From a virus: DNA of 64,000 nt. The stretch's first letter is position 1; every line of letters begins with the position of its first letter. A model generated the notes under the pieces. That model was not told the origin of the DNA, made no database searches, and saw only the letters and a list, made by a program, of their open reading frames with translations. Of the stretch, positions 33,984 to 56,502 are shown one piece after another. A program made the position numbers and the translations under genes. Where the stretch lies: positions 17,061-81,060 of the IMG/VR virus record IMGVR_UViG_3300013004_000041; one strand, 5' to 3'.

Positions 33984-34108
33984 TATGGCTTTATCCTTTT
34001 TGCCCCGCATCTAGTACATGTTTGATAGGTTCTCATTGTATATGGGCATGTTACTTCATCCTTAGATGTTTTATGACCTTTAATATTACACAATATTTTT
34101 TTAATCAT
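33983..34108 (-). CDS. small Zn-ribbon protein (41 aa)
   Basis: Not in ORF track: MIKKILCNIKGHK...CPY...CTRCG; overlaps both neighbours. Confidence 0.6.
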   Translation of the reverse strand: MIKKILCNIKGHKTSKDEVTCPYTMRTYQTCTRCGAKRIKP

Positions 34109-34608: not shown

Positions 34609-34609
34609 A

Positions 34610-35272: not shown

Positions 35273-35280
35273 TTTTTATC

Positions 35281-36042
35281 CTATCTATATTTTTTTCTCA
35301 CCCAACGGTGCTTTTTGTAGAACCCATAAAGATAATTTCTTTTTCTTTCTACGTCCCAGATTCCTTGATTTTGTAAACTATGATCTATCTTTTTTTCCCA
35401 ATTAGCACGTTTAATTGGAATAAACTGAATAATAGGTGTTCCCTTTTTAATTGTACCTTCAAAATCTTTTCTTAAAAAGAATGTAACTACATTTCCACTA
35501 AACCATCTGTCTGAATCTTGAACTGCAGTCATAGTAAAGAATGGAAGGTCATATCTATTAGTTGGATGAGTAATCATTAAAGACCATCCATCTGGTAATT
35601 TGCATCCCCATCTCATGTCCCATAAAAAGTGTATAGGATAGCATCCTGATGGTACTGGGATCTCTAAATGGCCACGCATTTCGATTGGTCTTGGCTCGTC
35701 ATCTCCCCAAGTAACTTCTGGCTTATTTGGATCATCTGTTTTTTTAACATGAACATCACATGCAAGTGGTAACTGATATCCCATAGTTAGGGCATCAAAA
35801 AATGGCATACAGTGCTTAATGCTAATTGCAGCAGAGTCTGCTCCTTTATTCCAAGTGACACTAAGATCGTCTATATTGTCATGTAATTGGTATAAGGGTC
35901 TATCCTTCCACCAGTCTGGTAAATTGTCAATTGCTGCTACTGGTTCTGGTGTAAACTGATAAGCAGTTGAAGCCCAGAACTCTGCCGTAAGATTTTCCAT
36001 TTCTGGAACATCTTTATACATATCCTCTAACTTATCTCCCAT
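35281..36042 (-). CDS. DUF6065-like protein
   Basis: KHCMPFFDALTMGY, GWSLMITHP and IKKGTPIIQFIP motifs. Confidence 0.5.
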   Translation of the reverse strand: MGDKLEDMYKDVPEMENLTAEFWASTAYQFTPEPVAAIDNLPDWWKDRPLYQLHDNIDDLSVTWNKGADSAAISIKHCMPFFDALTMGYQLPLACDVHVKKTDDPNKPEVTWGDDEPRPIEMRGHLEIPVPSGCYPIHFLWDMRWGCKLPDGWSLMITHPTNRYDLPFFTMTAVQDSDRWFSGNVVTFFLRKDFEGTIKKGTPIIQFIPIKRANWEKKIDHSLQNQGIWDVERKRNYLYGFYKKHRWVRKKYR

Positions 36043-36755
36043 TACTTAAACACCTTCTTTTCCCACATAAAATTTTTATAAGATCCGCCAAACTTAGCCC
36101 TTAGTTTATACGAAATTGCTTTAAGAGCATGCATATCTGGCTTTTCTAATATTTCAGATCTAAACTCTTCTCTTTTATAAGGAATACATTGTACTAGGGG
36201 AGTGCCCTTTTCAATCGTACCCTTAAATCCTCTTTTTACTAAAAGAGAGAATGGTCCATCTGAGATGTACATATCGGTATCAATTATAGCAGGAACAATA
36301 ACAAAAGGCAAATCATCATGAAATGATGGATGGATAAACATAGTACTATATCCTTTTTCAGTTCCAATTACCCACATAGGGTGTACTCTAAAAATATCAT
36401 CTACATATAAATTTTTATCGTATGTCCATCCATCTATCTGCTCTCTGCTGTGCTTACCAATTACATCATTATGTATTGGATGTACTTGAACTTCAAGGCT
36501 TTCTCCAGTTGCATCAACATAAACATCACATGGAAACTTTAACATGTAACCCGTAACCATTTGATCTAAAATTCCTGGACACTTTTTAATTGTTTCATTA
36601 TATTGTCCACCAATTAATTTTCTTTCTCCCCCAACAAAAGGCTCTGTCTTTCTCCACCAGTGAGGTATATTCTTAGACATTGGTTCTGGATGTGGCGCAT
36701 ATTCAAAAGTAAACTCATCTTTTGGAATAAATTTAATATTTTTTTGTTTTGACAT
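36042..36755 (-). CDS. DUF6065-like protein (tandem paralog)
   Basis: KKCPGILD..TGY, GYSTMFIHP and IEKGTPLVQCIP motifs, matching the adjacent gene. Confidence 0.5.
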   Translation of the reverse strand: MSKQKNIKFIPKDEFTFEYAPHPEPMSKNIPHWWRKTEPFVGGERKLIGGQYNETIKKCPGILDQMVTGYMLKFPCDVYVDATGESLEVQVHPIHNDVIGKHSREQIDGWTYDKNLYVDDIFRVHPMWVIGTEKGYSTMFIHPSFHDDLPFVIVPAIIDTDMYISDGPFSLLVKRGFKGTIEKGTPLVQCIPYKREEFRSEILEKPDMHALKAISYKLRAKFGGSYKNFMWEKKVFK

Positions 36756-36757
36756 TA

Positions 36758-37534
36758 CTATTCCTCTACTCTCATGTACATAAAAATCTCATCATGTTTA
36801 ATATAAGGAGATTTGCTTCTTACATTGACATACAATTGTACAGGAACCTGAACACTTTTGGTATCAACTGGACAATCTATTGTTATTTCTTCAACCTTTA
36901 TTCTTAATCTTTTTTCTATTTCTTCATCTGTAAAAAATGTCACCTTAGAAGAATTTTTTGGAAGCCATCGAATATTCCATAAATACCAGTAAGGGTACAG
37001 AGCATTCGTATCGTTTTTGCTATATAAGTTATCTATCTCTTCTTTTGTTAATTTTATATCTTTAATTTTTTCATCATCAACCTCTAGGTGCTGATAGAGA
37101 GTTCTACTTAAAGGCATTGGCATTGGAAGGCTAAAATCTTGTCCAGTTAAAGTATAATTATAATTAAAACTATTCTTTAAAAAAAACACATCAGCAGAAA
37201 CACGAAGACGATATAGGTTATCTTCAACTTTTTCTGGCTTATAATTTGTTTCATGAACCCATCTATTTTCAGGAACCCAATAAGATGCTCCATCATCATA
37301 TTCTTTATGCCAATCACTTGGAGAATATTGTGGTTGTAGTTCTCCAGAATCTAGTTTTGGCTGAATTTTTTTTTCATATTCTTTAGTCTCCATGGCAACC
37401 TGAGAACTAATTAAAAATGGAGTAGACCTTGTTTTTGACAAAGTTTCTTTATTCATTGCAACTGTATCATCAGACCACAAGAACTCTTGTTCGCTATAAT
37501 CTGGATAATAGTTGTCGTTATATTTACGAGACAC
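36758..37534 (-). CDS. hypothetical protein
   Basis: 258-aa ORF starting 3 bp after the PASTA-Hint gene. Confidence 0.55.
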   Translation of the reverse strand: MSRKYNDNYYPDYSEQEFLWSDDTVAMNKETLSKTRSTPFLISSQVAMETKEYEKKIQPKLDSGELQPQYSPSDWHKEYDDGASYWVPENRWVHETNYKPEKVEDNLYRLRVSADVFFLKNSFNYNYTLTGQDFSLPMPMPLSRTLYQHLEVDDEKIKDIKLTKEEIDNLYSKNDTNALYPYWYLWNIRWLPKNSSKVTFFTDEEIEKRLRIKVEEITIDCPVDTKSVQVPVQLYVNVRSKSPYIKHDEIFMYMRVEE

Positions 37535-37536
37535 TA

Positions 37537-38583
37537 TTAGTTATCTTTCGTATCGAAAACCAACATTGTTTCTGTAAAGAAGTTGTCGTACGGCTCACAG
37601 TTAATAGAGATAACATTGTCAATATAGTTTAATTCTGTTACGCTTGTAACTGCAATCCAGTCTTGATTAGAATAATCATAAACTTCATAAGATGTATCTA
37701 TATCTCTTGAAAGAACAAACTTATAAACATCATCTTTTCTTGCAAAGATCCAGTGTGTTGGAGAGAAAAGGCTTCCGTTGATGTTGTAAATCTTATCAAC
37801 AGTCTTTTCTTGTATCGCAACCACCTGAGTTTCAACAACTTCGATCCCGTCGAATGTTGAAGATGTCCATACTGCTGGATCAAATTGAGAAGTTCCTACT
37901 TCTGCGATATTTAGTCCTAGAAGTGTATCTCCAACTTGTAAAGAACCTGCAGTTACAATTCCTCCTGGAGTTCTAACACCAGTTGATGGTGATAATGAGA
38001 AGTAAGATCCGAAACCACCGTATCCTGCTGGAGCATGGCTAAAACCACCATAACCATGACCAAAGTTATGGTAGAAGCCACCATATGAGTGTGAGAAGTT
38101 GTGGTAGAACCCACCATATGAGTGTGAGAAGTTGTGGTAGAACCCACCATATGAGTGTGAGAAGTTGTGGTAGAAGCCATGGTAGAAACCTGCGTAATGG
38201 CTAAATGAGTGGTAGAAGCCATGGTAGAAACCAGCATAGTGGCTGAAACCAGCATAGTGGCTGAAGCCTGCGTAGTGACTGAAACCAGCATAGTGGCTGA
38301 AACCAGCATAGTGGCTGAAGCCTGCGTAGTGGCTGAAACCTGGATAAACATACTGATAGTAATTAATAGCAACGCTGGTACCAATATTAACTACGGTACC
38401 AGCGGTCACTGATTGTGTATTTATCTTTTGATCTAAGTTAGCATCAGAGGTAGTAGTGCTTGTCTCTGTATATGTTAACCCCTTTAATGTAAGTTCTGCC
38501 TGATACTGACTTCTTGTCATACCAGATAGGCTAGGTACAGAAACCTTTCTTATACCTCTATCACCAGTTCTTTGTAGTGCCAT
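37537..38583 (-). CDS. PASTA domain + Tyr/Phe/His/Gly repeat core + C-terminal Hint-like domain protein
   Basis: VPSLSGMT..TQS.TAGTVV..GTSV (PASTA); YAGFSH and YGGFYHNFSHS repeats; SLSPSTGV..LQVGD..SPTH..YDNFF (Hint blocks). Confidence 0.75.
   Translation of the reverse strand: MALQRTGDRGIRKVSVPSLSGMTRSQYQAELTLKGLTYTETSTTTSDANLDQKINTQSVTAGTVVNIGTSVAINYYQYVYPGFSHYAGFSHYAGFSHYAGFSHYAGFSHYAGFSHYAGFYHGFYHSFSHYAGFYHGFYHNFSHSYGGFYHNFSHSYGGFYHNFSHSYGGFYHNFGHGYGGFSHAPAGYGGFGSYFSLSPSTGVRTPGGIVTAGSLQVGDTLLGLNIAEVGTSQFDPAVWTSSTFDGIEVVETQVVAIQEKTVDKIYNINGSLFSPTHWIFARKDDVYKFVLSRDIDTSYEVYDYSNQDWIAVTSVTELNYIDNVISINCEPYDNFFTETMLVFDTKDN
38002..38343 (-). repeat. coding tandem repeats (18-bp and 33-bp units)
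   Basis: Six 18-bp GFSH units at ~38239-38343 and three near-identical 33-bp units at ~38068-38170. Confidence 0.9.
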
Positions 38584-38627: not shown

Positions 38628-40445
38628 TTATGAAGAGGCAAGGTCTCCAACAACAACGAAGGTGTTGGCTGCTCTCTTAATAATTGTCGCTCCAGACCAA
38701 GTAGTTCTTGTCTTAGCGGTTGGTGTTCCATTTACAGTTACACCTGATCCACCAGCAATTGTTACCTGTCCTGCAGCAACTTGAAGAACTTCAAGTCTTT
38801 GACCCACTGGCCAGAAAGAGTTATCTGCAGGAATTGTAAATGTTCCTGCTGAAGCAGAGTTATACTCAATAATCATATTGACATCGCTTGATACGAATGT
38901 ATATGCGCCTGTCTTTTGAGCAATGTCTGCCGTCTTATTAGCCTTTGTATCAAGTGTTGTTGAAAGTGCTGTTCCGTTTAATGTTACAGAAGATGATGCT
39001 GGAAGAGCAACTGTTCCTGTAAATGTTGGAGATGCTAACGGAGCCTTTAATGCAAGTGCATTAGTTACTGTAGTAGCATAATTTGCATCGTCTCCAAGTG
39101 CTGCAGCAAGTTCATCAAGAGTATTTAATGCTCCTGGCGCTGCTGCAATAACTGCATCAACTTCAGCCTTTACGAATGCTGTTGTAGCAATTTGAGTAGT
39201 GTTTGTGCCTACTGAAGCAGTTGGAGCAGTTGGTGTTCCAGTTAATGCTGGTGAAGCCAACGGTGCCTTTGATGAAACTGCAGTATCTGTATATGTGTTT
39301 GCAGATGCTATTGCATTTGTTCCTGCTGTGTCAGCATATGTCTTTGTAGCAAGTGCTGATGTGTCTGCAATACCATGAACAGATGTTGTTGCTGCTTCGT
39401 GTGTATCAAGATCTGAGACAACAGTTGCTAAAGTACCTTCTGCTGTATCAAGATCTCCCTGAAGTGTAGAAATATTTGATTCTGCAGTATTTACATCAGA
39501 CTGTAGGGTAGAGACATCAGACTGTAGGGTAGAAACATCTCCCTGTAAGCCAGTGATGCTTACTTCTGCTGTATCGAGGTCTCCCTGGATAGCAGAGATA
39601 TTTGACTCTGCGGTTCCAAGGCTTGTATTAATTGTTCCAATGTCTGTTTCTGCATCAGTAACTCTTGAAGTTAAAGATGATAGATCAGATGTAGTAGTAG
39701 AAATTGTTCCTTCTGCTGCATCTACTCTTGTGTCTAATGATGCAATTGCAGATTCTGCATTATCAACATCAGTTTGTAATGTTGTTATGTTTCCTTCTGC
39801 TGTAGAAAGATTAGTCTGCAATGACCCAACATCAGTCTGTAGTGTTCCAATGTTTCCTTCTGCTGTATTTAAATCTGTTTGCAGATTTGTAATATTTGTT
39901 TCTGCTGTTGCTAAATCGCTTGCAGTATCTGATAAAGTTGCTGCATCTGCATACCCCTGAGACTTAACCCAAAATGTTGTTGCAATTCTTGTTGAATTTT
40001 CGTTAGAGTCTGGGTTTGGTGCTGCTGGTGATCCAAAGAATGTTGGGGATGTCAATGGAGCCTTTGTAGATAAAGCATTAATAATCGTATTTCCAAAAGA
40101 TGAATCTTCGTCAATTGCTGTTGCAATCTCGCTCAAAGTATCTAATAGGGCTGGTGCTCCATCAATAATATTTCCAAGTTGTGACATTGGAATATTTCCT
40201 GTGCTATCAAGAGTTGCAACGCCGTTTGCTGATGCCTTCTCTGTTAACAAAATATAATCGTCTAAATTACCACCTAGGTCTTCTAGGTTCTTAAAGTAGG
40301 AGAGATCTTCCCAATGGTTAACACCGTCACCAATTTTAAATTGGTTTGTGTCAGTTTCAAATCCGATTTCTCCTGCTGCCAAAATTGGATCTGCATCTGT
40401 CCATTGCTGTGCAGTTCCTCTGCGTTGCTGCATTCTTGTTGCCAT
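38628..40445 (-). CDS. tail fibre with Mtd-type N-terminal domain and coiled-coil stalk
   Basis: RMQQRRGT..W..PILAAGEIGFETDT..KIGDG; heptad repeats; APGALNTLDELAAAL; C-terminal VVGDL domain. Confidence 0.8.
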   Translation of the reverse strand: MATRMQQRRGTAQQWTDADPILAAGEIGFETDTNQFKIGDGVNHWEDLSYFKNLEDLGGNLDDYILLTEKASANGVATLDSTGNIPMSQLGNIIDGAPALLDTLSEIATAIDEDSSFGNTIINALSTKAPLTSPTFFGSPAAPNPDSNENSTRIATTFWVKSQGYADAATLSDTASDLATAETNITNLQTDLNTAEGNIGTLQTDVGSLQTNLSTAEGNITTLQTDVDNAESAIASLDTRVDAAEGTISTTTSDLSSLTSRVTDAETDIGTINTSLGTAESNISAIQGDLDTAEVSITGLQGDVSTLQSDVSTLQSDVNTAESNISTLQGDLDTAEGTLATVVSDLDTHEAATTSVHGIADTSALATKTYADTAGTNAIASANTYTDTAVSSKAPLASPALTGTPTAPTASVGTNTTQIATTAFVKAEVDAVIAAAPGALNTLDELAAALGDDANYATTVTNALALKAPLASPTFTGTVALPASSSVTLNGTALSTTLDTKANKTADIAQKTGAYTFVSSDVNMIIEYNSASAGTFTIPADNSFWPVGQRLEVLQVAAGQVTIAGGSGVTVNGTPTAKTRTTWSGATIIKRAANTFVVVGDLASS

Positions 40446-43774: not shown

Positions 43775-44290
43775 TTAGGCTAGTCCAGCCTTCAATGCTC
43801 CCCATGTTCCATTGCCTTTTGCTTGAATAACAATTACACCAGTTGTAGGGTTTGAAACAGCAACAATTCCAATGGCCCCACCAACGACGGTATCTGTAAG
43901 AGAACCAGAAGAATCTACATATAATAATTCTCCTACAGAAAAACCACTAGTATTAACATTTGTTAAAACGCCAGCAACTACCACTTCTCCACTTGCACCA
44001 TCTGTCAATGATGTTTTTGTCAACCCAAGAAATGGATAATTATCTGATAGTGATGATGTAAATAATTCTATTTGAGTTTTATTATTAATGTGACCTACAG
44101 CATAGACTGGCTTTGCTGCGCCTATTGTTGATCCTGAATTATTTATTACTTTTACCCGCACATTTGACGCATCAAGAGAAGCAATAGCATCGTCAACATC
44201 GTCTGCTAATTTTTTAATATCATTATGCACATTAACAGAGTCAGTTGCCTGTGGATAAGTTAGACCATAGTTATTAGTTATTTCAGCCAT
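43775..44290 (-). CDS. putative structural protein
   Basis: TNNYGLTYP..DIKKLA..VD N-terminus and GEVVVAG motif. Confidence 0.5.
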   Translation of the reverse strand: MAEITNNYGLTYPQATDSVNVHNDIKKLADDVDDAIASLDASNVRVKVINNSGSTIGAAKPVYAVGHINNKTQIELFTSSLSDNYPFLGLTKTSLTDGASGEVVVAGVLTNVNTSGFSVGELLYVDSSGSLTDTVVGGAIGIVAVSNPTTGVIVIQAKGNGTWGALKAGLA

Positions 44291-44312
44291 AGACAAATAT
44301 TATATCATTGTT

Positions 44313-44342
44313 TGACTATATGTCCCAAATTGTGTTATACTA
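44313..44342 (+). promoter_or_regulatory. housekeeping-sigma promoter for the lysozyme-like gene
   Basis: TTGACT-N18-TATACT with extended TG. Confidence 0.6.
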
Positions 44343-44397
44343 AGAAGTAACATGGCACCCTTTAACAAGGTGTCATTCCGTTTCTAAGGAGGAAACT

Positions 44398-44961
44398 ATG
44401 ATGAACTTTATGAATAATAACAGGCAAATCATTGGCACACTCAGCATATTAGCAATGTTTGGCGTTTGGTCAAATGCCGCTAATGCTTCTGAAAACCGAT
44501 TAGACGATAGTAAAAATATCGTGCTGCAAGAAACAATAGAGGCCACGAAAGTGGCCAAAAGTGTTTCTGAGGCTAAAGAAGATCAGTTAGAAAAATATAA
44601 AAATGCTGTAAATCTATCTGACAAAGAACTTAAAAATCTACTATATTTAGTAGGTTTTGAAGGTCAAAAACTAAGAGAGGCTTGGGCTATTGCTAAGAAA
44701 GAATCTGGCGGTAGACCAATGGCGTTAAACCTTAGTAAAAGAACTGGAGATAGTTCTTATGGCTTATTTCAAATAAATATGATTGGCGACCTTGGTCCTG
44801 AGCGTAGAGATAAGTTTAAATTAGAATCAAACTACGAGTTATTTAATCCAGTATTAAATGCTCAAATTGCATTTCACATGTCAAACGGCGGTGAAAATTG
44901 GATTGCCTGGAAGGGCATCACTCCAAGAACAAAAAGTCTAATGTCTAATTTTCCACATTAG
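44398..44961 (+). CDS. signal-anchored lysozyme-like/lytic transglycosylase
   Basis: N-terminal hydrophobic segment; AIAKKESGG, SYGLFQIN, LFNPVLNA and W.AW motifs; RBS AAGGAGG. Confidence 0.8.
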   Translation: MMNFMNNNRQIIGTLSILAMFGVWSNAANASENRLDDSKNIVLQETIEATKVAKSVSEAKEDQLEKYKNAVNLSDKELKNLLYLVGFEGQKLREAWAIAKKESGGRPMALNLSKRTGDSSYGLFQINMIGDLGPERRDKFKLESNYELFNPVLNAQIAFHMSNGGENWIAWKGITPRTKSLMSNFPH

Positions 44962-45661
44962 TATTTTCCCATAAGTGTTTTTCTTTTTGATATCTTTCTT
45001 CAAATTCTAAAACACCACGGTAATCACAGCATGGGCATATTGGTCTTCCGTCGGAATAATCTGGCTGAGACCAATATCCCATTCTGGCCCTAAATCTAAA
45101 GTCTGCCTCATGTCCATGCTTATCAAAACCAGCCTTTCCGCCTTCTGTAAAAAACCAATGGTCTGGCTCCGCAAATTGCATAAACAATAATGTTACATAG
45201 TCATCTTCGTTATCGCTTGGGTATGGAGTTCTCCAATGAAGCATATCATTTCCAGAAAATAACACACAACTATTAGGCTCTTCTTCAAACTCTTGATCTT
45301 CAACAACAAGTTTCCAATCTACAGTTTTCTCAATACAAATATCTAAAGAATATTGACAAGCAGACTGATCCCAATGCTTCCACAATTGTGGCTTAATTCC
45401 ATTTTGCATTTGGTACCTTGCTGTATGAAAGCCTGCACGTTTTAAGTTTGGATTATTAAATGTTTTTCTTGCTATATCTAAGATTTCTTTTTCTGTTTCT
45501 TCATCAAAATGAATTTCTGTAAGCCATCTACCAGCAACGGTATGATAGAAATGATTTCCGTCTGGTCCCATATTTTTATCTAATATTTGCTTTTTAACAT
45601 TGCCAAACATATGCGGTGGCAAAAAATTTTTAATAGCGATTGGGCTAGTTATTGATGACAT
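44945..45661 (-). CDS. putative 2OG-Fe(II) oxygenase
   Basis: LWKHWD (HxD)...HWR; paralog of the adjacent gene; C-terminal CPCC. Confidence 0.7.
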   Translation of the reverse strand: MSSITSPIAIKNFLPPHMFGNVKKQILDKNMGPDGNHFYHTVAGRWLTEIHFDEETEKEILDIARKTFNNPNLKRAGFHTARYQMQNGIKPQLWKHWDQSACQYSLDICIEKTVDWKLVVEDQEFEEEPNSCVLFSGNDMLHWRTPYPSDNEDDYVTLLFMQFAEPDHWFFTEGGKAGFDKHGHEADFRFRARMGYWSQPDYSDGRPICPCCDYRGVLEFEERYQKEKHLWENTNVEN

Positions 45662-46205
45662 TATTACTCCTATTTTGTTCTCTTATTTTTTCAACATACC
45701 CTGGGCCTTCTGTAAAAAACCAATGGTCTGGCTCTACATAATGAAAAAACACTACACCAATTTTATCATAATTATTAACTTTAGTATCTCTCCAATGCTC
45801 GTACTTTTCACCCATAAACATAACTGCCTCATTTGGCTCTGCCAAAAATTCAACACCATCTACAAATATTCCCCATGGCTCATTTTGATACAGAACTAGG
45901 TCTAGGGTATATGTACATGCATTGGCATCCTTGTGTCTATGTAAACTAATAGTTTCTGATGAATATTCAGCAAAAAGAGAGTATGAAGGAAGGGCTGTTT
46001 CTGTTCCAAAAAACTCCCTTACTTTTGGCAATAATATATTACTATATTCTTTTAGTATTGACTCTGACCCATCACCAAGTAGTTTTCTGCCAAACTCGTC
46101 TGTTCCTATTCTAGACAATAGTTCATGATTTTTAAAATATTCACAGATTCTATTAAAGTCTTCTGGGCTAAGAGCATTTTTTATAATTCCTAACTCTTTA
46201 TTCAT
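45645..46205 (-). CDS. putative 2OG-Fe(II) oxygenase
   Basis: LHRHKD..C.YT...EHWR...FFHY. Confidence 0.7.
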   Translation of the reverse strand: MNKELGIIKNALSPEDFNRICEYFKNHELLSRIGTDEFGRKLLGDGSESILKEYSNILLPKVREFFGTETALPSYSLFAEYSSETISLHRHKDANACTYTLDLVLYQNEPWGIFVDGVEFLAEPNEAVMFMGEKYEHWRDTKVNNYDKIGVVFFHYVEPDHWFFTEGPGYVEKIREQNRSNNVINN

Positions 46206-46983
46206 TTATATACCTCTTCATATTTCCAGAAAAATAATGATGTATAAAGACATCATCTTTATTTGTTGTATCAAAGTCTGTACCTAAACATATATCTTTA
46301 TCTTCAAAATACTCATATTTTATATTGCTTTGACGAATATTATAATATGCAGCATATTGAGAAACATTCCAGAAGAAGATGTGATCTGTATTTGAATTAA
46401 GGCTACTAAAAATTTTATCTGTAAAATTATTAATTGTATCTATCCACAGTAGTTCAAAGTCTTTTAAGATTTTATTTATTTCTGTTTTACTTAATATCAT
46501 TTGTCCATCATTGATTCCTGGATTTATATTAAGACTCTTTATAAAATTTTGAACAACGCCGTCGTTAAACTCTTTTTTAAAATAACACATGTCCTTATTG
46601 TATTTATTTAATAATTCTATTGGACTTTTATAAAAAATAGTATCTGTATCTAAAAATAAAACTCTATCATATTCATGCTGTTTGATAAAATTTAAAATAT
46701 TTATCCATCTATGATGAAGCCAAATGTTCCATGGATGAACTGGAACTTTATTGCTCCATCTTTTAAAAACCTCATCATTGTTAAAATCAATAAGAATAAC
46801 TTTATTATCTATAAAAAACTGGTCTATAATTTTTGTTTTAGATGATATGTAAACAAAAATATCAATATCTGAAAACTTTCTTATTGAAGATATGGAATGT
46901 TTCAATTGTTTATAGTTATGATGAACTGATGGATTGTCTTCAAAATATAAAGAATATAAAACTGCAGTTTTTAGGCCATCCAT
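46198..46983 (-). CDS. GT-A fold glycosyltransferase
   Basis: VLFLDTDTIF (DxD), INDG and C-terminal IHHY. Confidence 0.7.
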   Translation of the reverse strand: MDGLKTAVLYSLYFEDNPSVHHNYKQLKHSISSIRKFSDIDIFVYISSKTKIIDQFFIDNKVILIDFNNDEVFKRWSNKVPVHPWNIWLHHRWINILNFIKQHEYDRVLFLDTDTIFYKSPIELLNKYNKDMCYFKKEFNDGVVQNFIKSLNINPGINDGQMILSKTEINKILKDFELLWIDTINNFTDKIFSSLNSNTDHIFFWNVSQYAAYYNIRQSNIKYEYFEDKDICLGTDFDTTNKDDVFIHHYFSGNMKRYINE

Positions 46984-47537
46984 TGAACTATCACATACCT
47001 TAATCCATCTGTAACTGGATGAACCTCGTGGTTATATACAAAGTTTGATGGGAATATAAGAAGTTGATTTTTTTGAGCCTTAAATCTTAGGCCAAATCGT
47101 TTAAACTCTACATCCCCTCCTTCATATTCATCATTTAGGTAATAAGTCAAAGATATTCTTCTTGTAAAAAATGGATGATCGTCTATATGGTCATGGAACT
47201 TTTGTTCTTTACCATACCTCAAAAGTTGTGGGTGTTCAAATTTTTCTATTTTTGCTGCATAATAAGCAAGGTATTGATCAAGACATGGTCTAAGTTCTTT
47301 GTGAAATTCTTTAGAAAAGTCTGCAAGTAATCCAGTTGCATCATTCATGTGATGTGGTAGCATTATCAGATCTGTATCTCTTGCTTTATAATTTGTACCA
47401 GATTTATTTTCATCCTGATTAACTAAGACTTCTGCTGCTTGCCAAGACATGCCCTGATCTTCTATTTTATTAATATACTCCATAGAGTTTTGAAATATAT
47501 TATCAAAAACAACAATTCCTGGTGCTAATTCTTTCAT
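46971..47537 (-). CDS. prolyl 4-hydroxylase-like 2OG-Fe(II) oxygenase
   Basis: LLRY..HID..YLNDEYEGG..HEVHPVTDGLRY; start at ATG 47537 just after the upstream stop. Confidence 0.85.
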   Translation of the reverse strand: MKELAPGIVVFDNIFQNSMEYINKIEDQGMSWQAAEVLVNQDENKSGTNYKARDTDLIMLPHHMNDATGLLADFSKEFHKELRPCLDQYLAYYAAKIEKFEHPQLLRYGKEQKFHDHIDDHPFFTRRISLTYYLNDEYEGGDVEFKRFGLRFKAQKNQLLIFPSNFVYNHEVHPVTDGLRYVIVQWMA

Positions 47538-47539
47538 AC

Positions 47540-47770
47540 TTACCACTTTCCTAATGGGCACGTGGCCCCTTCTAGTTTTACTTTAAGGTTCATTAAACAT
47601 CCACACTTCTTGCATTGCTTTGTAGCATTGATTAGTTCTGGACACAATAAGCATATATTATATCTAGAGTATGCGACCTCATCTGTTGCCCTTGGTGCTT
47701 GAGGATTTAATAAATCCCAAGGCCTTGTTGATCCTAAATTTTGCTTATATCTCTCCCATGGAGTTGTCAT
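47540..47770 (-). CDS. small Cys-rich protein (DUF6171-like)
   Basis: R..IC..CP..CKKCGC.M.LK..L..A.CPLGKW; paralog at 57262..57462. Confidence 0.7.
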   Translation of the reverse strand: MTTPWERYKQNLGSTRPWDLLNPQAPRATDEVAYSRYNICLLCPELINATKQCKKCGCLMNLKVKLEGATCPLGKW

Positions 47771-47772
47771 TT

Positions 47773-48138
47773 TTATTCTTTCTTAGTTCTTATAGAATGA
47801 CCAAAATGTAACTTTGGATTGCTTGCAAGCATTGATCCAAGTTGTGATGTAGTTGTTAACTGATTTATTTCATTATTATTAATATCAATAAACTTAATAA
47901 TTGAACAATCATCATTTACGCATTCTATTTTAGATGAATTCTGTAATATTTCTATAAACCAGGAATGCGTAGAAAACTGTTTAGCAGCCTCAATTTTTCC
48001 ATCATCATTATAAATGCAAACAATTGTTCCAGGAACGTGATACTCATCACCAACATTTAATTTTTCAGTTAGCAATGCCTCGTCTTCATCATTAAAAAAT
48101 ATATCATTATCAGTTAACATAGTAATCCATTCTATCAT
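47773..48138 (-). CDS. hypothetical protein
   Basis: 121-aa ORF directly after the PPVT repeat gene. Confidence 0.55.
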   Translation of the reverse strand: MIEWITMLTDNDIFFNDEDEALLTEKLNVGDEYHVPGTIVCIYNDDGKIEAAKQFSTHSWFIEILQNSSKIECVNDDCSIIKFIDINNNEINQLTTTSQLGSMLASNPKLHFGHSIRTKKE

Positions 48139-48165
48139 TAAACTTAAAGTTTTGCAAGTTATATT

Positions 48166-49635
48166 TTATAAACATCCGCAACCTGATGATGGGCTTGTAC
48201 TTGGACCACCGCATAGTCCAGATCCATATCCTCCATCACAAACAGCATTTGCTGTATCAGCAGCCTCTGCTGCGCTGCTAAATGAATAAGATTGGCATCC
48301 ACCTAAGTTACCACAGCAGCACCAATAATATGTTTGAGTACTTGATGGTGTTACAGGTGGAGTAACTGGTGGAGTCACAGGTGGAGTAACAGGTGGCGTT
48401 ACTGGTGGAGTCACAGGTGGAGTAACAGGTGGAGTCACAGGTGGAGTAACAGGTGGAGTCACAGGTGGAGTAACAGGTGGCGTTACTGGTGGAGTAACAG
48501 GTGGCGTTACTGGTGGAGTAACAGGTGGCGTTACTGGTGGTGTAACAGGTGCTGGTGTACAACTTGGTGTTCCTGCTGCTGCAGAAGAACCACAAACAAA
48601 GCCGCTTGGAAGATATCCATAAGCATTTTCTAGTCCATTTGATAAGTCGTTACATGATTGATTATATGGGCCGAAAGGTCCTTGTGGTGAATTCGTAGTT
48701 GAACAGAATCCGTAGTAATTAGTGTATGTGTTTGGTGGAGTAACAGGTGGAGTCACGGGTGGGGTTACTGGTGGTGTCACAGGTGGAGTAACAGGTGGAT
48801 TTGCTCCAGTACAAGAAGTTATAACGTTAGTAGAAACTCCTCCGTTTAATGTTGCGCTTATAGAGAAACAGAATGATTCAGCATTTGACTCTGCTTGAGT
48901 AGCATTTGATGCTGTGGTTGTTCCAATAGTGTTATCGTCGCAACAGAAATAATATGTTTGCGTTACTGGTGTTACAGGTGGAGTCACAGGTGGAGTAACA
49001 GGTGGCGTTACTGGTGGAGTAACAGGTGCTAGAGTACAGTCTGGAATTCCACTTGCTGGTGTAGTTCCACAGGCCCAACCAATTGGTGGATATCCGTATG
49101 CGTTTTCCCAAGTTTCAAGAATTGATGAGCATGGGCCATACACTGTTGACTGTGTTATTGGTTCTAGTGTTCCTTGATCACACCATCCATAGTAGTAAGT
49201 GGTGACTGGCGTTACTGGTGGAGTAACTGGAGGCGTCACAGGTGGAGTCACAGGTGGAGTCACAGGTGGTGTGACAGGTGGTGTGACAGGTGGTGTGACA
49301 GGTGGAGTAACAGGTGGAGTAACAGGTGGCGTTACTGGTGGAGTAACAGGTGGAGTCACAGGTGGAGTAACAGGTGGCGTTACTGGTGGAGTAACATAAT
49401 TATAATATTCAAAATCTAAAGTTGCTTCATATTCACGAAGTTCGTTTGTATCAGATCTTTTTTTTGCTTTTCCATTGTTAGAAGAATTTGCACCTGTTGT
49501 TGTTGAAGATTCTGATCCTAATTTAAAGCCTGCCTCTGTAATAGCATTCCTTGCATCATTTAAAGTTAGTCCCTCAATATCAGGAACTTTTCCCATTCCT
49601 TTTGAAGATGCCCATTTGCCAAGGAATCCAAGCAT
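48166..49635 (-). CDS. PASTA-like domain + PPVT repeat + Cys-rich module protein
   Basis: VPDIEGLTLNDARNAITEAGF (PASTA-like); four (PPVT)n tracts alternating with four Cys-rich modules. Confidence 0.75.
   Translation of the reverse strand: MLGFLGKWASSKGMGKVPDIEGLTLNDARNAITEAGFKLGSESSTTTGANSSNNGKAKKRSDTNELREYEATLDFEYYNYVTPPVTPPVTPPVTPPVTPPVTPPVTPPVTPPVTPPVTPPVTPPVTPPVTPPVTPPVTPPVTPVTTYYYGWCDQGTLEPITQSTVYGPCSSILETWENAYGYPPIGWACGTTPASGIPDCTLAPVTPPVTPPVTPPVTPPVTPVTQTYYFCCDDNTIGTTTASNATQAESNAESFCFSISATLNGGVSTNVITSCTGANPPVTPPVTPPVTPPVTPPVTPPNTYTNYYGFCSTTNSPQGPFGPYNQSCNDLSNGLENAYGYLPSGFVCGSSAAAGTPSCTPAPVTPPVTPPVTPPVTPPVTPPVTPPVTPPVTPPVTPPVTPPVTPPVTPPVTPPVTPPVTPPVTPPVTPSSTQTYYWCCCGNLGGCQSYSFSSAAEAADTANAVCDGGYGSGLCGGPSTSPSSGCGCL
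48348..49396 (-). repeat. four tracts of 12-bp coding repeats (Pro-Pro-Val-Thr)
   Basis: GGTGGAGT(A/C)ACA-type units at ~48348-48550, 48733-48798, 48961-49028 and 49201-49396. Confidence 0.9.
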
Positions 49636-49642
49636 CTGGTAC

Positions 49643-50272
49643 CTACGCTGTCAAATCGCCAATAAGGACCCAGGTATCTGTACCAGTTTTGATAAGAGTT
49701 GCACCAGAATACCTCGCAGCAATTTTCTTGTTAGAATTTTTACTATTAATCGTTACACCAACAGCACCAGCAAACGTAACATTACCAGTATTTAGTCTTA
49801 CTACGTCTAATCTCTGTCCATTTGCAAACGGTACAGAAGAGTTAAGCGGAACAGTTACAGTTCTATCAATTGTAGAATCAATTAAAATTGTTTGTCCTGC
49901 ATCTGCAAGACCTAAAGTATAATCAGCAGTTTTTGTATTAAGAGTTGCTGTATCTAACATTCCTACCCATGATGTACCGTTATAAATTTGAACTTGATTT
50001 ATATCAGTGCCACCATTTGTTTGCTCAACAAAACATACTGTTCCCTTAATTGGAGATAGAATTACCATATCTCTTGCCATTGGGTTTTGAAATCTATTTA
50101 CTCCACCCTTAGCACGGATAACATCATTTACGGTTACTATTGATCCAAAAGTGTGTGCGGCATTCCATGTGTATGCAACATTTGTGTTAGCAGTTCCAGC
50201 AACGGCATACCAAGTGTCTGATACTTGATCATACATGTATGCTACTTTACTGGTTGAACTAACTGTTGACAT
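49643..50272 (-). CDS. fibre-associated protein with C-terminal domain shared with 38628..40445
   Basis: GQRLDV..G.VT...GVT.N..SGATLIK...WVLIGDL. Confidence 0.7.
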   Translation of the reverse strand: MSTVSSTSKVAYMYDQVSDTWYAVAGTANTNVAYTWNAAHTFGSIVTVNDVIRAKGGVNRFQNPMARDMVILSPIKGTVCFVEQTNGGTDINQVQIYNGTSWVGMLDTATLNTKTADYTLGLADAGQTILIDSTIDRTVTVPLNSSVPFANGQRLDVVRLNTGNVTFAGAVGVTINSKNSNKKIAARYSGATLIKTGTDTWVLIGDLTA

Positions 50273-50457
50273 TAATTATTTTCCTCCGATAAATTTATTT
50301 CTGGAAAGAATACTCCACCATCAATACCATTATTATAATCCCAACCATTTGTATATTCAATATACTTGCCAGGGTTAGCAGCAACTACTTCATCTTCTAC
50401 GCCAACAATAATGTTGACTACTTTGTTATCTTCAATAACTGCAAATAATTTATCCAT
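50272..50457 (-). CDS. small protein, putative fibre chaperone
   Basis: FAVIEDNKVVNII; follows the Gly-rich gene. Confidence 0.5.
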   Translation of the reverse strand: MDKLFAVIEDNKVVNIIVGVEDEVVAANPGKYIEYTNGWDYNNGIDGGVFFPEINLSEENN

Positions 50458-50466
50458 TGTTATCTC

Positions 50467-50991
50467 CTATACCCAGTATTCAACGTCAATACGACCTGAA
50501 CCACCGTTGCCCCCTGGGCGACCAGAATCTCCACCGCTTCCACCAGCGCCACCTGCTCCAATTGAATAAGAAATTGATGCACCTGGTGTTACTGAAAGAG
50601 TACTGCTAACAATTACTCCGTTTATTCCGAACTGAGCATTTGTTCCGCCAACACCAGTGCCACCTGCTCCACTTCCGCCAAGACCTGAACTACTAGGAGC
50701 GTTTACTCCAGTCTGCGCTGTATTTCCAGTGTTTCCATAAAATCGAACTCCACCAGTTCCTCCAGGCGCTGAAGTTGCGCCAGTAAAAGTAGTAGTTCCT
50801 CCATCACTTCCATAACTTGGATTTGTACCGCCACTAGTGCTGCACCCACCACCTCCACCGCCACCGCCAACAAGAGTTACATTAAGATATGTAACTCCTG
50901 CAGGGACGGTGTAAGAAGTACCAGAGGTAAGTGTTGTGCGATACATAGTTTTGCTACCTGCTGCTGGAGCAGGAAATACTGAGTAACCCAT
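50467..50991 (-). CDS. glycine-rich adhesin-like protein
   Basis: YTVPAGVT..VGGGGGGG..VTPG..IGAGG..GGSGRI. Confidence 0.7.
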   Translation of the reverse strand: MGYSVFPAPAAGSKTMYRTTLTSGTSYTVPAGVTYLNVTLVGGGGGGGGCSTSGGTNPSYGSDGGTTTFTGATSAPGGTGGVRFYGNTGNTAQTGVNAPSSSGLGGSGAGGTGVGGTNAQFGINGVIVSSTLSVTPGASISYSIGAGGAGGSGGDSGRPGGNGGSGRIDVEYWV

Positions 50992-51301: not shown

Positions 51302-51943
51302 CTAGTACGCACCCATTACGGATGAAATTATAATAGACTCAGTGTCTACCTGTTGCCATTTGACACCAAGTGGGCTTGAGTTGTCTGCAGTTAATACTGT
51401 TCCATTTGCACCTACAGTCAAATTATCAATATTTGCTGCAGAACTGCCAATAAGTATATCACCTTTTGCCTGAATAATGTTCTTAAGATCGTTAACCCTT
51501 ACCCATTCATCATCTATTTGATTGTAGACATATAGGTCTAATGCTTCTGAATCTTTGTCTACCCAAAGAACTCCATCAACGATGTCTGTAGTTGGAGCCT
51601 CATTTGTATAAAAAGCAGAAGCATATAAGGTTTCAACTGCTCCACCATTTGAATCTGATGCCATGGCAATATAGCCGTCTGTTTGTCCTGTTAATGCTGT
51701 TATTTGTGCTAAGGTTAAATAATCGGATCCAATACCTTGATCTTCTAAAAATGTAACATCATCTCTTAGGTTTTGTAGATGTTTTGCTAATGATGGATTT
51801 GGTAATTGTGTTGGGTCCGTACTTGTAGTGTCATATGTATAACTACCATATAAAAATGCTTTTAGGGCTGCCTGAATATCAGCAGCGTCGTCATATCCAG
51901 GCTGCTTTGTATTATATAAACCACCAATATTTTCTACTGCCAC
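51302..51943 (-). CDS. fibre-associated protein
   Basis: AKGDILIG..L.VGANG.VL.AD..G.KW motif. Confidence 0.55.
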   Translation of the reverse strand: MAVENIGGLYNTKQPGYDDAADIQAALKAFLYGSYTYDTTSTDPTQLPNPSLAKHLQNLRDDVTFLEDQGIGSDYLTLAQITALTGQTDGYIAMASDSNGGAVETLYASAFYTNEAPTTDIVDGVLWVDKDSEALDLYVYNQIDDEWVRVNDLKNIIQAKGDILIGSSAANIDNLTVGANGTVLTADNSSPLGVKWQQVDTESIIISSVMGAY

Positions 51944-52980: not shown

Positions 52981-53700
52981 TTATATCACAGACACGTATA
53001 TAGAATTCATCAATACTGAAGAATCATAGTCTGCCCTAATTTGAGGTACCGCTCCAGAACTCCACATGGCACTGTCTTCTATAAAGAAATTTTGTGTAAC
53101 ATACATGTTATATACATATTGATATTTTAATGATGCCACAAATTGAGAAATTTCAGTAGTAGATTTAGGGAAAAAGGTTCTAATCCAAACCTCTGTATTA
53201 TTACTATACGTTGTAAGTTCAAAATTATAAGTAACAAAAACTTGAGATCCTACATTTAATCCTTTAAAATTTAACTGTCTTGTGTTTTCATTCCATAGGC
53301 TTACAGAGTCTTTTGGTAAATATTTTTCATTGGTATTGGACCCTTTTGAATCTACCCAAACACTAACCCATCCGTCTTCACCTTTATCTGCGCCAAGTCT
53401 AATTTCTTTTCTATTATTGTTAAAGTATGCTCCCCATCCAGCCTGTTGACCAGACGCAGATAGAGAACTTAGTCCATCTTTGCCAGGGGTACCTCTTTCG
53501 CCTTTAGATCCTTGTATGCCGTCTTTTCCAGCAGGTCCCTGAGGTCCAGGTACCCCTGCAGGTCCTTGAGGCCCCATAGGGCCAGGTACAGGAACATAAT
53601 TAATTAATACATCAGTATTTGTTGTTTGAGTTTCTACAACTTGTGCAGCATAACTAGATTTTTTGTTTGTAGGAAAATCCATGGATTTAGAAACGGCCAT
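52981..53700 (-). CDS. collagen-like (Gly-X-Y) structural protein
   Basis: GPMGPQGPAGVPGPQGPAGKDGIQG. Confidence 0.75.
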   Translation of the reverse strand: MAVSKSMDFPTNKKSSYAAQVVETQTTNTDVLINYVPVPGPMGPQGPAGVPGPQGPAGKDGIQGSKGERGTPGKDGLSSLSASGQQAGWGAYFNNNRKEIRLGADKGEDGWVSVWVDSKGSNTNEKYLPKDSVSLWNENTRQLNFKGLNVGSQVFVTYNFELTTYSNNTEVWIRTFFPKSTTEISQFVASLKYQYVYNMYVTQNFFIEDSAMWSSGAVPQIRADYDSSVLMNSIYVSVI

Positions 53701-53709
53701 GGCTTTTCT

Positions 53710-54513
53710 TTATAGGTCTCCGACTTTATTTACTGTAACAATAACTGACGGAATAGATGGGACTCCAACTGGTGTACCAGAGTCAGCAATGGCAGCAATA
53801 GAAACATTTGTGCTTGCTGTGTACCACATCAATTGAAAATCTTGAGGCAGAACATCACAATTTACAAAGAAATTCCACGCAGCAACGTTGTAAGTATTAT
53901 TATTAGCCATGTGAATAATTGTTGCTGTATCTGGAACATCTACATCGTTATGTCTCATCCAAACATAAATATCTGCTGCAGATCCACCAGTTTTTTCTAA
54001 TTGTAAACTAAATGCAATATTATAAATACCTAAAATATCCATTGTTATTCTTGAACCATCTACAATATTTATCCCATTTGAAAAATCTGTAGAGTTTAAG
54101 GTTATAGCCTTAATTGATCCACCTGTTTGAATAGTTGTATCAAAAAATGATCCTAGTTTGGCTCCAGTTAAACTTCCTGGCTCACCTTGAATTCCTTGAA
54201 TACCTTGCTCACCTTGTGGTCCTTCTTCGCCCTTTGCTGCAACTAAATCCCAAAATAAACCTTCAGATGGAGTATCTCCAACATTGCCACCATTTGCATT
54301 TTTACGATACCATGTTTGGCCGTCATAAGTTACAACATCTCCAACTACGTAAGATGCTCCTGGATTGTATTCACCATTGTAATACCATGCAGCGTCTGCA
54401 CCTGCTGGACCCTGTTGTCCTACTTCTCCCTGTGGACCTTGTGCACCAGTTGCACCTGTGTCGCCTTGTTGTCCTTCTGCGCCTGGCATAGGAACTATCT
54501 TAATAACTGCCAT
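53710..54513 (-). CDS. collagen-like protein with CBM5/12-like module
   Basis: Two Gly-X-Y tracts flanking YVVGDVVTYDGQTW. Confidence 0.7.
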   Translation of the reverse strand: MAVIKIVPMPGAEGQQGDTGATGAQGPQGEVGQQGPAGADAAWYYNGEYNPGASYVVGDVVTYDGQTWYRKNANGGNVGDTPSEGLFWDLVAAKGEEGPQGEQGIQGIQGEPGSLTGAKLGSFFDTTIQTGGSIKAITLNSTDFSNGINIVDGSRITMDILGIYNIAFSLQLEKTGGSAADIYVWMRHNDVDVPDTATIIHMANNNTYNVAAWNFFVNCDVLPQDFQLMWYTASTNVSIAAIADSGTPVGVPSIPSVIVTVNKVGDL

Positions 54514-55599: not shown

Positions 55600-56502
55600 A
55601 TGGCTGAATTAGAAGAAGATCCATTTTTTGGAGTATTAAATCGTGACTTTGTCTATATACTTAACGGAACAGAAGATATAAAACTTCCAAATAATTCCTA
55701 TTCAACTTGGTGTATGGATTGTGATCATCCTGTGTGTGTTAAAAGACAGCATAGAATTATTAAAAATAATTGGCATAAATACCCTGCTTTTGAATACAAA
55801 TTAAACAACTATGGCTTTAGAAGTGATGACTTTTCTTCAGAACTCGCTGGATCAAATATTCTTTATGGTGGATGCTCAAATACATTTGCACTTGGAGTTC
55901 CAATTGAATACTCTTGGGCATATCAACTAAATAAACATTTAGGGAAAAATAAATATTTTAGTACAGCAGTTAACAGTTCATCTATTGATGTAGTTGTTCA
56001 CAATACAATAAATTACATTCGTAAAATTGGAAAGCCTTCTGGAATTATTCTTTTACTTCCAGATTTATTGCGAGTAGTTTCGAAAATTGACATGAGACTG
56101 GATAAAAAAGTAGGAACATATCCAATCCTTGTAAATACAGGAAAGCAGATAATGGGAGATGAAAAAACATTTCCAATCATTCGTGGAAACTTGTTATTTA
56201 GATTTTATGAAGACGTTACCGCATTGGAAATGATTTGTGAAACATTAGATATTCCTCTTATGTGGTCTACATGGAACGAAGATTTAAATAATATTATAAA
56301 AGAAGAACTACATGATAAATTTAATCACTATGTCAATATGCTTGATAATATAAGATTTGAGCATTGGCAAGAAAATGAAGAGGCAGACAGTAGTATGTTT
56401 TGGAAGGCTTCACGAGAAGGCCATTATCCAGGAGTAACTCATAAAGTATACGCAGATGTAATGTTTGAGTTATGGCAGAAAAAATATGGATCACCTTCTT
56501 AA
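55600..56502 (+). CDS. SGNH-hydrolase-like protein
   Basis: NNYGFRS..GCSNTF.LG..SW and C-terminal H.PG..H; RBS AGGAG. Confidence 0.5.
   Translation: MAELEEDPFFGVLNRDFVYILNGTEDIKLPNNSYSTWCMDCDHPVCVKRQHRIIKNNWHKYPAFEYKLNNYGFRSDDFSSELAGSNILYGGCSNTFALGVPIEYSWAYQLNKHLGKNKYFSTAVNSSSIDVVVHNTINYIRKIGKPSGIILLLPDLLRVVSKIDMRLDKKVGTYPILVNTGKQIMGDEKTFPIIRGNLLFRFYEDVTALEMICETLDIPLMWSTWNEDLNNIIKEELHDKFNHYVNMLDNIRFEHWQENEEADSSMFWKASREGHYPGVTHKVYADVMFELWQKKYGSPS

Follow-up and report, generated by a model that had tools for sequence, protein, structure and literature searches.

Plant and algal extensins combine proline-rich polyproline-II repeats, prolyl 4-hydroxylase (P4H)-family enzymes and O-glycosylation into a principle of stiffening. 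Among viruses, the eukaryotic giant virus PBCV-1 was reportedly described by Eriksson et al. in 1999 as encoding a prolyl 4-hydroxylase together with proline-rich repeats presumed to be its substrates. Freeman et al. are said to have shown in 2023 that mycobacteriophage virions are O-glycosylated by phage-encoded glycosyltransferases (GTs), with capsid and tail-tube proteins as the targets, and we know of no hydroxylases or proline-rich stalk proteins described for these phages. The O-glycosylated Pro/Thr linkers of secreted multidomain enzymes from actinobacteria and fungi and the GT8-glycosylated serine-rich-repeat adhesins are cellular, not viral, and to our knowledge neither system has dedicated prolyl hydroxylases. 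Here, we analysed a gene cassette at positions 44945–49635 of a 64,000-nucleotide stretch of viral DNA (the window), which forms the final 64 kb of the 81-kb IMG/VR record IMGVR_UViG_3300013004_000041. A (PPVT)n repeat gene is followed, in the order given by the original prediction, by an open reading frame (ORF) of unknown kind, a Cys-rich gene, a P4H-like gene, a GT gene with a DxD motif and two paralogous oxygenase genes, OxyA and OxyB. These genes mostly overlap or abut, as had also been noted, with gaps of 27, 2, −22, −13, −8 and −17 nt, all on the minus strand. With moderate confidence, we consider the cassette to be a recurrent mobile module whose most likely role is the self-modification of a proline-rich, fibre-linked protein.

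The cassette resembles each described system in part. Like PBCV-1 with its enzyme vCPH, it pairs a virus-encoded P4H-family enzyme with virus-encoded proline-rich repeats as presumed substrates; unlike PBCV-1, in which a single enzyme is encoded outside any operon with its substrate, the tailed phage carries three oxygenases together with a GT and a Cys-rich protein. Proline-rich polyproline-II repeats beside P4H-family enzymes recall the extensins. As in the mycobacteriophages, a phage GT would serve the phage's own virion proteins, and the hosts would be actinobacterial, the window capsid protein being close to those of Streptomyces phages. The likeness to Pro/Thr linkers and serine-rich-repeat adhesins lies in spacers between small modules and in a GlyE-like GT fold. 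The founding member of the PF11397 (GT60) family is described as glycosylating hydroxylated Skp1. In Dictyostelium and Toxoplasma, the Skp1 pathway is outlined as the action of PhyA followed by Gnt1 (GT60) and further GTs (PMC3515798, PMC11570480). The phage cassettes likewise combine a presumably cytoplasmic P4H with soluble GTs, GT60 genes are present in related cassettes, and the OxyA fold is nearest to the PHD class. Unlike the single proline of Skp1, which serves oxygen sensing, the presumed phage substrate is a structural protein with long repeats, and the GT of the window is GT8-like, with no GT60. The window cassette stands apart from all of these systems as a tailed-phage operon of a repeat protein, three oxygenases, a Cys-rich protein and exchangeable transferases.

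The repeat protein and the neighbouring enzymes

The candidate substrate is a modular 489-aa protein (48166..49635, minus strand) composed of a PASTA-like N-terminus, four (PPVT)n spacers and four Cys-rich modules. About 40 PPVT units in four tracts had been noted, and exactly 40 were counted in this single ORF. Tandem Repeats Finder places the underlying 12-nt arrays, all on the minus strand, at 49217..49396 (tract 1, 15 units), 48974..49028 (tract 2, 4 units), 48734..48799 (tract 3, 5 units) and 48353..48551 (tract 4, 16 units). The composition of the protein includes 102 Pro, 80 Thr, 51 Val and 20 Cys. At the DNA level, the 40 units occur in 11 versions with a mean pairwise identity of 0.85, and all 1401 pairwise differences among them lie at third codon positions, every one of them synonymous. 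Selection therefore keeps the peptide, not the DNA repeat, constant in these tracts. The possibility that the proline-rich ORFs of the window and its relatives are wrong-strand artefacts of Gly-rich genes was rejected: no longer ORF is present at their positions, they lie on the cassette strand and possess conserved N-terminal and Cys-rich ends, and the variation among the PPVT units of the window is purely synonymous. The Cys-rich modules between the tracts are ordered A-B-A-B, with 45% identity between A1 and A2 (E 4e-16) and a weak likeness between B1 and B2 (E 7e-5 over 19 aa). An Atlas search with module A1 gave no usable feature match and structure matches with TM ≤0.51. The N-terminus scores 21 bits for PASTA, below the Pfam cut-off of 23.2, and homologous N-terminal domains in four relatives exceed this cut-off (L108, 29.7; L101, 32.3; L084, 77.1 with three copies; L107, 24.9). 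Neither megablast of positions 44000–50500 nor tblastn of the 489-aa protein returned a match among 50,697 phage records.

Directly upstream of the repeat gene lies a gene for a fibre-type protein (49643..50272, minus strand) with matches to PHROG tail and fibre families. In the relatives L087, L081 and L107, the proline-rich tracts reside within proteins of 680–1010 aa that open with fibre domains homologous to the window proteins 51302–51943 and 49643–50272. The proline-rich proteins of relatives combine their tracts with PASTA, Fn3 or Ig and Hint-type domains, and in loci of the S type, defined below, the proline-rich gene directly follows tail genes and precedes lysis genes. Given the preceding fibre gene, the fibre domains in relatives and the tail-gene adjacency of the S-type loci, the tracts would serve as rigid spacers of an adhesion protein that is presumably attached to the virion.

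The first oxygenase gene (46971..47561, minus strand) encodes a P4H-family 2-oxoglutarate (2OG)/Fe(II) enzyme of 196 aa if read from GTG 47561. Most homologs begin at MKEL, so the true start is probably ATG 47537, giving a protein of 188 aa; this ATG sits 2 nt past the stop codon of the Cys-rich gene, and the overlap of 22 nt then probably vanishes. The protein matches PF13640 with 60.3 bits (cut-off 27; E 3.7e-16). Across 26 homologs and paralogs, His125, Asp127 and His178 are invariant and Arg188 is at least 90% conserved; its position about 10 residues after the distal His suggests that Arg188 binds the 2OG carboxylate. The family profile retrieves B. anthracis P4H (4.5e-15), PBCV-1 vCPH (5c5t, 1.2e-9) and P3H1 (7.1e-9) from the PDB, as well as PiuC, PHD2 and the lysyl hydroxylase LH3, with 57 distinct sequences at E ≤0.01. 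We assign the protein to the prolyl-4-hydroxylase family, with peptidyl-proline hydroxylation as its putative reaction.

OxyA (45645..46205, minus strand, 186 aa) is a double-stranded beta-helix (DSBH) oxygenase of the prolyl-hydroxylase structural class, and its paralog OxyB (44945..45661, minus strand, 238 aa) bears a C-terminal extension with a conserved C-x-C-C motif. The two are 41% identical over 83 aa (E 1e-20), and His91, Asp93, His137 and Arg139 are invariant in an alignment of 27 OxyA/B sequences. In hhalign, the OxyA/B profile aligns with the P4H profile with a probability of 78% (E 1.8e-5) and with the HxD motifs in register. The predicted OxyA structure (pLDDT 85.3) is matched best in Foldseek by PHD2 (1.8e-8, TM 0.62–0.67), vCPH (5c5t_B, 3.1e-7) and Pseudomonas PPHD (4j25). 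Profile and model together point to putative PHD-like DSBH 2OG oxygenases. Searches against Pfam yielded no family for OxyA or OxyB at E values up to 0.1, their sole PHROG match is phrog_2954, labelled 'ferrochelatase', and PDB sequence searches with OxyA and with the OxyA/B profile gave nothing meaningful. When genome contigs were scanned with the same profile, 50 pattern matches appeared and none was confirmed, which at that sensitivity leaves no cellular or prophage copy. OxyB homologs share the C-terminal extension (44945–45200 in the window) with the motif 'RP[IV]C-x-CCDYR', which is missing from OxyA; the extension may be an extra metal site.

The GT gene (46198..46983, minus strand) encodes a predicted retaining-type, GT8-like GT-A glycosyltransferase of 261 aa, whose DxD motif is formed by Asp112 and Asp114. 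Neither residue varies among 11 sequences, and both are conserved at 90% or more in an alignment of 113 distant relatives, comprising the window protein and 112 of 144 profile hits; the 32 hits left aside are mostly short or partial, and two sequences already present in the smaller alignment are also omitted. Pfam matches among the 113 sequences are 20 to GT8 (PF01501), 16 to Mannosyl_trans3 (PF11051), 9 to Nucleotid_trans (PF03407) and 1 to GlcNAc (PF11397). The window protein itself has no PF01501 match, and its PF03407 (GT77-type) match at E 0.055 remains under the cut-off. Its structural model (pLDDT 85.7, pTM 0.87) is closest in Foldseek to LARGE1 (2.1e-8), UGGT (1.7e-7) and XXYLT1 (3.7e-7), with WbbM, GlyE (5gvv), LgtC and glycogenin also among the matches. 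A PDB sequence search with this protein gave nothing meaningful, a single-protein scan of viral contigs produced 17 pattern matches of which none was confirmed, and no GT60 (PF11397) was found in the window by Pfam. Profiles, folds and motifs thus bear out the enzyme identities first proposed from the sequence: a P4H-family oxygenase, two PHD/vCPH-like oxygenases and a DxD-containing GT-A transferase.

In the reading we favour, the cassette would make and tailor a fibre-like accessory protein of the virion. The 489-aa product would resemble beads on a string, in which a peptidoglycan-binding-type (PASTA-like) head and the Cys-rich modules are spaced by (PPVT)n. The spacers would be stiff polyproline-II rods, and textbook geometry, at approximately 0.31 nm per residue, gives an estimated length of approximately 50 nm for the 160 PPVT residues. 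The overlapping reading frames suggest co-expression, and the co-transcribed enzymes would act on the repeat protein in the cytoplasm of the infected cell. The P4H-family oxygenase, perhaps aided by the six-Cys protein, and the two PHD-like paralogs would hydroxylate spacer prolines; the position that is hydroxylated, or the stereochemistry, may vary among the three. The retaining, GT8-like transferase would then attach sugars to the repeat Thr or to the new hydroxyproline (Hyp). These modifications would turn the protein into a stiffer stalk, resistant to proteases and coated in sugars, whose variable disulfide knobs would probably help the phage to adhere to the cell wall of a Gram-positive (actinobacterial) host.

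Pairing of hydroxylases with proline-rich genes in related loci

Related loci were gathered from a hydroxylase scan of viral contigs (32 loci) and from the best 80 of 198 relatives found by an OxyA/B profile scan, amounting to 108 loci in total with 63 distinct anchor sequences. Five of the 63 distinct loci, which have less than 1.5 kb upstream and no proline-rich ORF, were not evaluable, leaving 58. A locus was scored as positive if an ORF on the same strand reached 30% Pro or more over a stretch of 40 aa and ended at most 2.5 kb upstream of the enzyme block. By script, 50 of the 58 loci are positive; inspection adds L009 and L098, two script negatives that the block-walking rule had overlooked, so that the enzyme blocks mainly have a proline-rich neighbour (52/58). 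The opposite pattern, which the original prediction had named as counting against it, is thus not observed. Elsewhere in the same 758 kb, the same rule finds only 2 proline-rich ORFs among 1136. The repeat units across the loci include PPVT, PPVV, PV, TPPPIIA, PTPT, PTPV, APTP, PVAP, TPAP, VPPP, PTAP and FPPF, and proline is their sole constant.

A second sample was anchored on GT60 genes instead of oxygenases. Its 30 distinct loci comprise 11 with both a P4H and a proline-rich ORF, 2 with a P4H only, 1 with a proline-rich ORF only and 16 with neither, and 17 of the 30 phage GT60 genes hence occur in the absence of a P4H. A proline-rich ORF is present in 11 of the 13 loci with a P4H versus 1 of the 17 without (Fisher 1.5e-5, uncorrected for relatedness). 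Hydroxylase presence therefore tracks proline-rich ORFs in these loci. One P4H-less locus (L132:4297-6576) encodes a 759-aa fibre-type protein with poly-Thr linkers, in which runs of 9–15 Thr are separated by AAP. This gene precedes a gene similar to the 76-aa Cys-rich gene of the window and a GT60 gene, an arrangement that forms a mucin-like counterpart of the proline-rich cases.

The cassettes occur in two structural contexts, one similar to the window with collagen-like and fibre genes (W) and one with a different tail module (S); tblastn of the S-type tail proteins against the genome of the window phage gave no match. On the OxyA tree, the two contexts interleave, and the W label requires 11 changes, at least 7 of which are forced by well-supported branches. 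This tree excludes L032, whose anchor is not an OxyA, and contains the OxyB-type anchors L008, L017, L030 and L031 on a long branch. Since non-homologous contexts interleave in this manner, the cassette appears to move together with its proline-rich gene. The loci belong to related phages, so that the counts are not independent and Fisher tests overstate significance; the two non-homologous contexts and the independent GT60-anchored sample reduce this concern.

Other observations also weigh against self-modification of the repeat protein. Four evaluable loci (L072, L075, L076 and L083) have an OxyA and no proline-rich ORF at all, L077 has a short proline-rich tail only, and in loci of the L027 type the homologous protein is a (TPIIA)n repeat whose Pro content is only 20%. 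The GT family is tiny: a set of 5.77 billion clustered proteins contains 14 close homologs. The substrate specificity of 2OG oxygenases is not readable from the fold, and the targets of OxyA and OxyB could be Val, Thr, Lys, Asp/Asn or the Cys-rich knobs. A total of 261 phage records, mostly of cyanophages, match the window 2OG-Fe(II) oxygenase at below 60% identity. The nearest homologs in cultured phages, at approximately 30% identity or less, are those of cyanomyoviruses and have no proline-rich neighbour; in S-MbCM7, the homolog lies among replication genes, again with none. In Synechococcus phage S-SCSM2R (PQ898602.1 228299-229582; L111:5968-7251), OxyA-like and P4H-like domains are fused in the same frame into a 427-aa protein annotated as '2OG-Fe(II) oxygenase', which speaks for joint action of both types of oxygenase. 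This fusion has no adjacent proline-rich ORF and is followed by three GTs, an aminotransferase-like gene, a radical SAM maturase, another GT and another oxygenase. The S-SCSM2R paper places such genes under antibiotic synthesis; its virion proteome includes a 2OG oxygenase, with the annotation prolyl 3,4-dihydroxylase, that is taken as non-structural (PMC12801897). As regards PBCV-1, a chlorovirus review cites an unpublished entry according to which no hydroxyproline was detected in the particles, though the P4H is active (PMC7019647).

The cyanomyovirus homologs and the four loci with an OxyA and no proline-rich ORF would suit a different role, in which the enzymes are auxiliary, directed at the host or intended for other virion proteins such as the collagen-like ones at 52981–54513, and adjacency to proline-rich genes merely reflects a shared hypervariable tail-lysis island. 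We regard this role as unlikely. Consistent with it, the cassette content is highly variable, the collagen-like genes of the window are 3–5 kb away, and the best solved match of the P4H is that of B. anthracis, an enzyme that acts on collagen-like peptides. A shared island, however, does not readily explain why the proline-rich ORF stays in place in nearly all evaluable loci despite changes in the repeat unit, the small ORF and the flanks, nor why the P4H tracks proline-rich ORFs in the GT60-anchored loci; the overlapping frames, too, suggest joint expression. A collagen-like neighbour is present in only 16 of the 63 distinct loci, namely 14 of 15 W-type, none of 23 S-type and 2 of 25 other loci. 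The collagen-like proteins, which the original prediction named as alternative substrates, are thus the weaker candidates, since none lies near the cassette in the S-type loci although the hydroxylases are kept there, and they were rejected as the best candidate for the main substrate.

Exchangeable putative tailoring genes and the likely sugar acceptor

Downstream of OxyA, relatives carry GT61, GT60 (PF11397, E 1.9e-35) or O-FucT-like genes, the last with weak matches; GT60 is found in L023, L026, L105 and L092. Their cassettes further contain genes for UDP-glucose dehydrogenase, NAD-dependent sugar epimerases/dehydratases, a carbamoyltransferase, JmjC and cupin proteins, radical SAM/SPASM enzymes and a sulfotransferase-like protein. 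BLAST to representatives detects GT-like genes in 40 of the 63 distinct loci, sugar-nucleotide enzymes in 19 and radical SAM genes in 15. In L005, whose repeat is pure (PV)n, five oxygenase genes and no GT precede the lysis genes. The hydroxylases form the core of the cassette, with glycosylation as an optional add-on. Where the tracts contain less than 10% Ser+Thr, 1 of 5 loci has a recognised GT; where they contain at least that share, the figure is 27 of 35 (Fisher 0.022, uncorrected). This scarcity of GTs where tracts lack Ser/Thr, together with the poly-Thr GT60 locus devoid of a P4H, tips the balance slightly towards Thr, rather than Hyp, as the residue that accepts the sugar.

These data bear on a strict extensin-type chemistry, in which the prolines would be 4-hydroxylated and the sugar placed on hydroxyproline to yield a Hyp-O-glycoprotein of the plant or algal kind. 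Its proponents could point to P4H-family enzymes that adjoin a proline-rich repeat, to the PF11397 transferase in the cassettes of L023, L026 and L105, and to the weak GT77-type match of the window GT. Nevertheless, no Ser-Pro4 motif (SPPPP) was found in the 489-aa protein, and no Hyp arabinosyltransferase of GT95 (HPAT), GT77 (RRA) or GT47 (ExAD) in the cassette, where the GT is GT8-like by its fold and by the Pfam matches of its relatives; unlike that of extensins, the phage setting includes no secretory pathway. The uneven distribution of GTs with respect to Ser/Thr content, and GT60 homologs that stand beside poly-Thr linkers with no P4H (L132), fit Thr-O-glycosylation better. We consider the strict form improbable. 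Of the hydroxyproline-rich stalk that the phage was proposed to make for itself, the enzyme families and their pairing with proline-rich genes held up, while the extensin hallmarks did not.

The radical SAM genes raise another interpretation, in which the proline-rich protein would be a precursor of the RiPP kind and not a structural stalk: its hypervariable Cys-rich C-terminal module would be hydroxylated and cross-linked, and then set free as a peptide. Many homologs indeed consist of a conserved N-terminal 'MSPLFRNPSGIGV' segment, repeats and a hypervariable Cys-rich end, maturase-type radical SAM/SPASM genes occur in the 15 distinct cassettes mentioned above, and Hint-type self-cleaving domains end some homologs (L104, L108 and L079). 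Yet the window protein, with 489 aa, four internal modules and a PASTA-like head, does not have a leader-core layout; several loci embed their tracts in proteins of 680–1010 aa with fibre domains, Fn3 or PASTA; and Pfam and PHROG reveal no radical SAM, protease or transporter gene in the window cassette. A RiPP-like precursor accordingly strikes us as very improbable. The maturase-type genes (L016:9655-10677 and 14 other distinct loci) usually accompany GT61. Their targets are likely the Cys-rich knobs, in which they would form thioether cross-links, separately from hydroxylation.

Beyond self-modification in the window phage, we tentatively entertain a wider proposal, for which the odds appear somewhat unfavourable: tailed phages of aquatic, probably actinobacterial, hosts would share a horizontally mobile toolkit of P4H-type hydroxylases, the six-Cys protein and exchangeable GT8-like, GT60, GT61 and O-FucT-like transferases, complemented by its own sugar-nucleotide enzymes and sometimes by radical SAM cross-linkers, for turning the proline-rich spacers of fibre-linked proteins into glycosylated, Hyp-containing polyproline-II rods. 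Such a toolkit would mean that eukaryote-like extracellular-matrix chemistry operates in bacterial viruses and serves host adhesion through hypervariable disulfide knobs. In aquatic phages, few genes without an explained function are as common as those for 2OG-Fe(II) oxygenases, and the toolkit would provide a function for part of the latter. One subfamily of these oxygenases is now tied to a concrete candidate substrate encoded alongside it. If the proposed modification takes place, no earlier case of prolyl hydroxylation in a structural protein of a bacteriophage is known to us; it would also be a second kind of phage self-glycosylation after that of mycobacteriophages, and an instance of collagen- or extensin-like stiffening chemistry in bacterial viruses. 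Literature searches, whose coverage mostly excluded subscription journals, returned no report of prolyl hydroxylation of phage fibre or proline-rich proteins. The enzymes are small, soluble and, by prediction, probably active in the bacterial cytoplasm, and are for this reason of interest as tools for the production of repeat proteins with hydroxyl groups or glycans. Rigid stalks bearing variable knobs may also constitute a host-recognition device relevant to the host range of lake phages.

Small genes and genome context

The 121-aa ORF (47773..48138, minus strand) occupies a variable slot that separates the repeat gene from the enzyme block. It belongs to no Pfam or PHROG family, and its homologs occur in some loci only, unrelated small ORFs taking its position elsewhere. 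A family of 60–70-aa proteins ending in 'GW-x-W/Y-x-G-x-x-F', represented in the window at 50272–50457 beside the fibre gene, also fills the slot between the repeat gene and the Cys-protein gene in L010, L018, L026, L027 and L029. The Cys-rich gene (47540..47770, minus strand) encodes a 76-aa, DUF6171-like six-Cys protein and directly precedes the hydroxylase gene in most loci. The protein scores 21.8 bits against PF19668 (cut-off 27) and matches phrog_13558 at E 2.8e-14; its Atlas look-alikes are viral DUF6171 clusters, and a literature search on DUF6171 found nothing. Across 40 family members, Cys40, Cys43, Cys53 and Cys71 are 100% conserved and Cys56 and Cys58 97%, and a C-terminal Trp is present, a pattern consistent with a probable metal-binding ribbon. 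DUF6171-like six-Cys genes also stand directly before GT60 genes in the P4H-less loci L129–L132 and L141. Because it lies ahead of GT60 where no P4H exists, the six-Cys protein is not a hydroxylase-specific partner and may have a more general role in the cassette.

The window encodes a capsid protein, portal, protease and many fibre-type proteins. Its major capsid protein is nearest to those of Streptomyces phages (41–42% identity over 77–78% of the query), which account for 127 of 228 matching records, making an actinobacterial host plausible. The C-terminal domain of the fibre-type protein at 49643–50272 is common to a 605-aa fibre (38628–40445), with 38% identity over 117 aa (E 3e-14). This second fibre heads a cassette of parallel layout at 31835–38583, in which a PASTA-headed repeat protein (29.8 bits for PASTA) is followed by enzyme genes, the last of which encode a GT2-like protein and an NAD epimerase. 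BLASTP of the two PASTA-headed window proteins against each other showed no significant similarity, and they are twins in architecture only. Hint/intein-like ends ('GGCI...HN') were observed on the proline-rich cassette proteins L108:4245-5891, L079:4144-6108 and L104:528-1625, that of L104 by a Pfam Hom_end_hint match (9.1e-6) and the other two by inspection; the second PASTA-repeat protein of the window (37537–38583) has a similar end.

A scan for promoters and terminators gave 31 promoter-like sites versus 27.2 expected and 2 terminator-like sites versus 3.7 expected. At the opposite end of the cassette, a gene for an SLT-type lysozyme with a signal-peptide-like N-terminus (44398–44961, plus strand) is convergent with OxyB, with a 17-nt overlap at the end of the latter; such a gene also follows the cassette in all W-type relatives. 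A 300-aa ORF (55600–56502, plus strand) without a family match lies 6 kb from the cassette. Its homologs (22–30% identity) are located inside the enzyme cassette in L077, L084, L095, L099, L100 and L108, and for this reason its product may belong functionally to the tailoring set.

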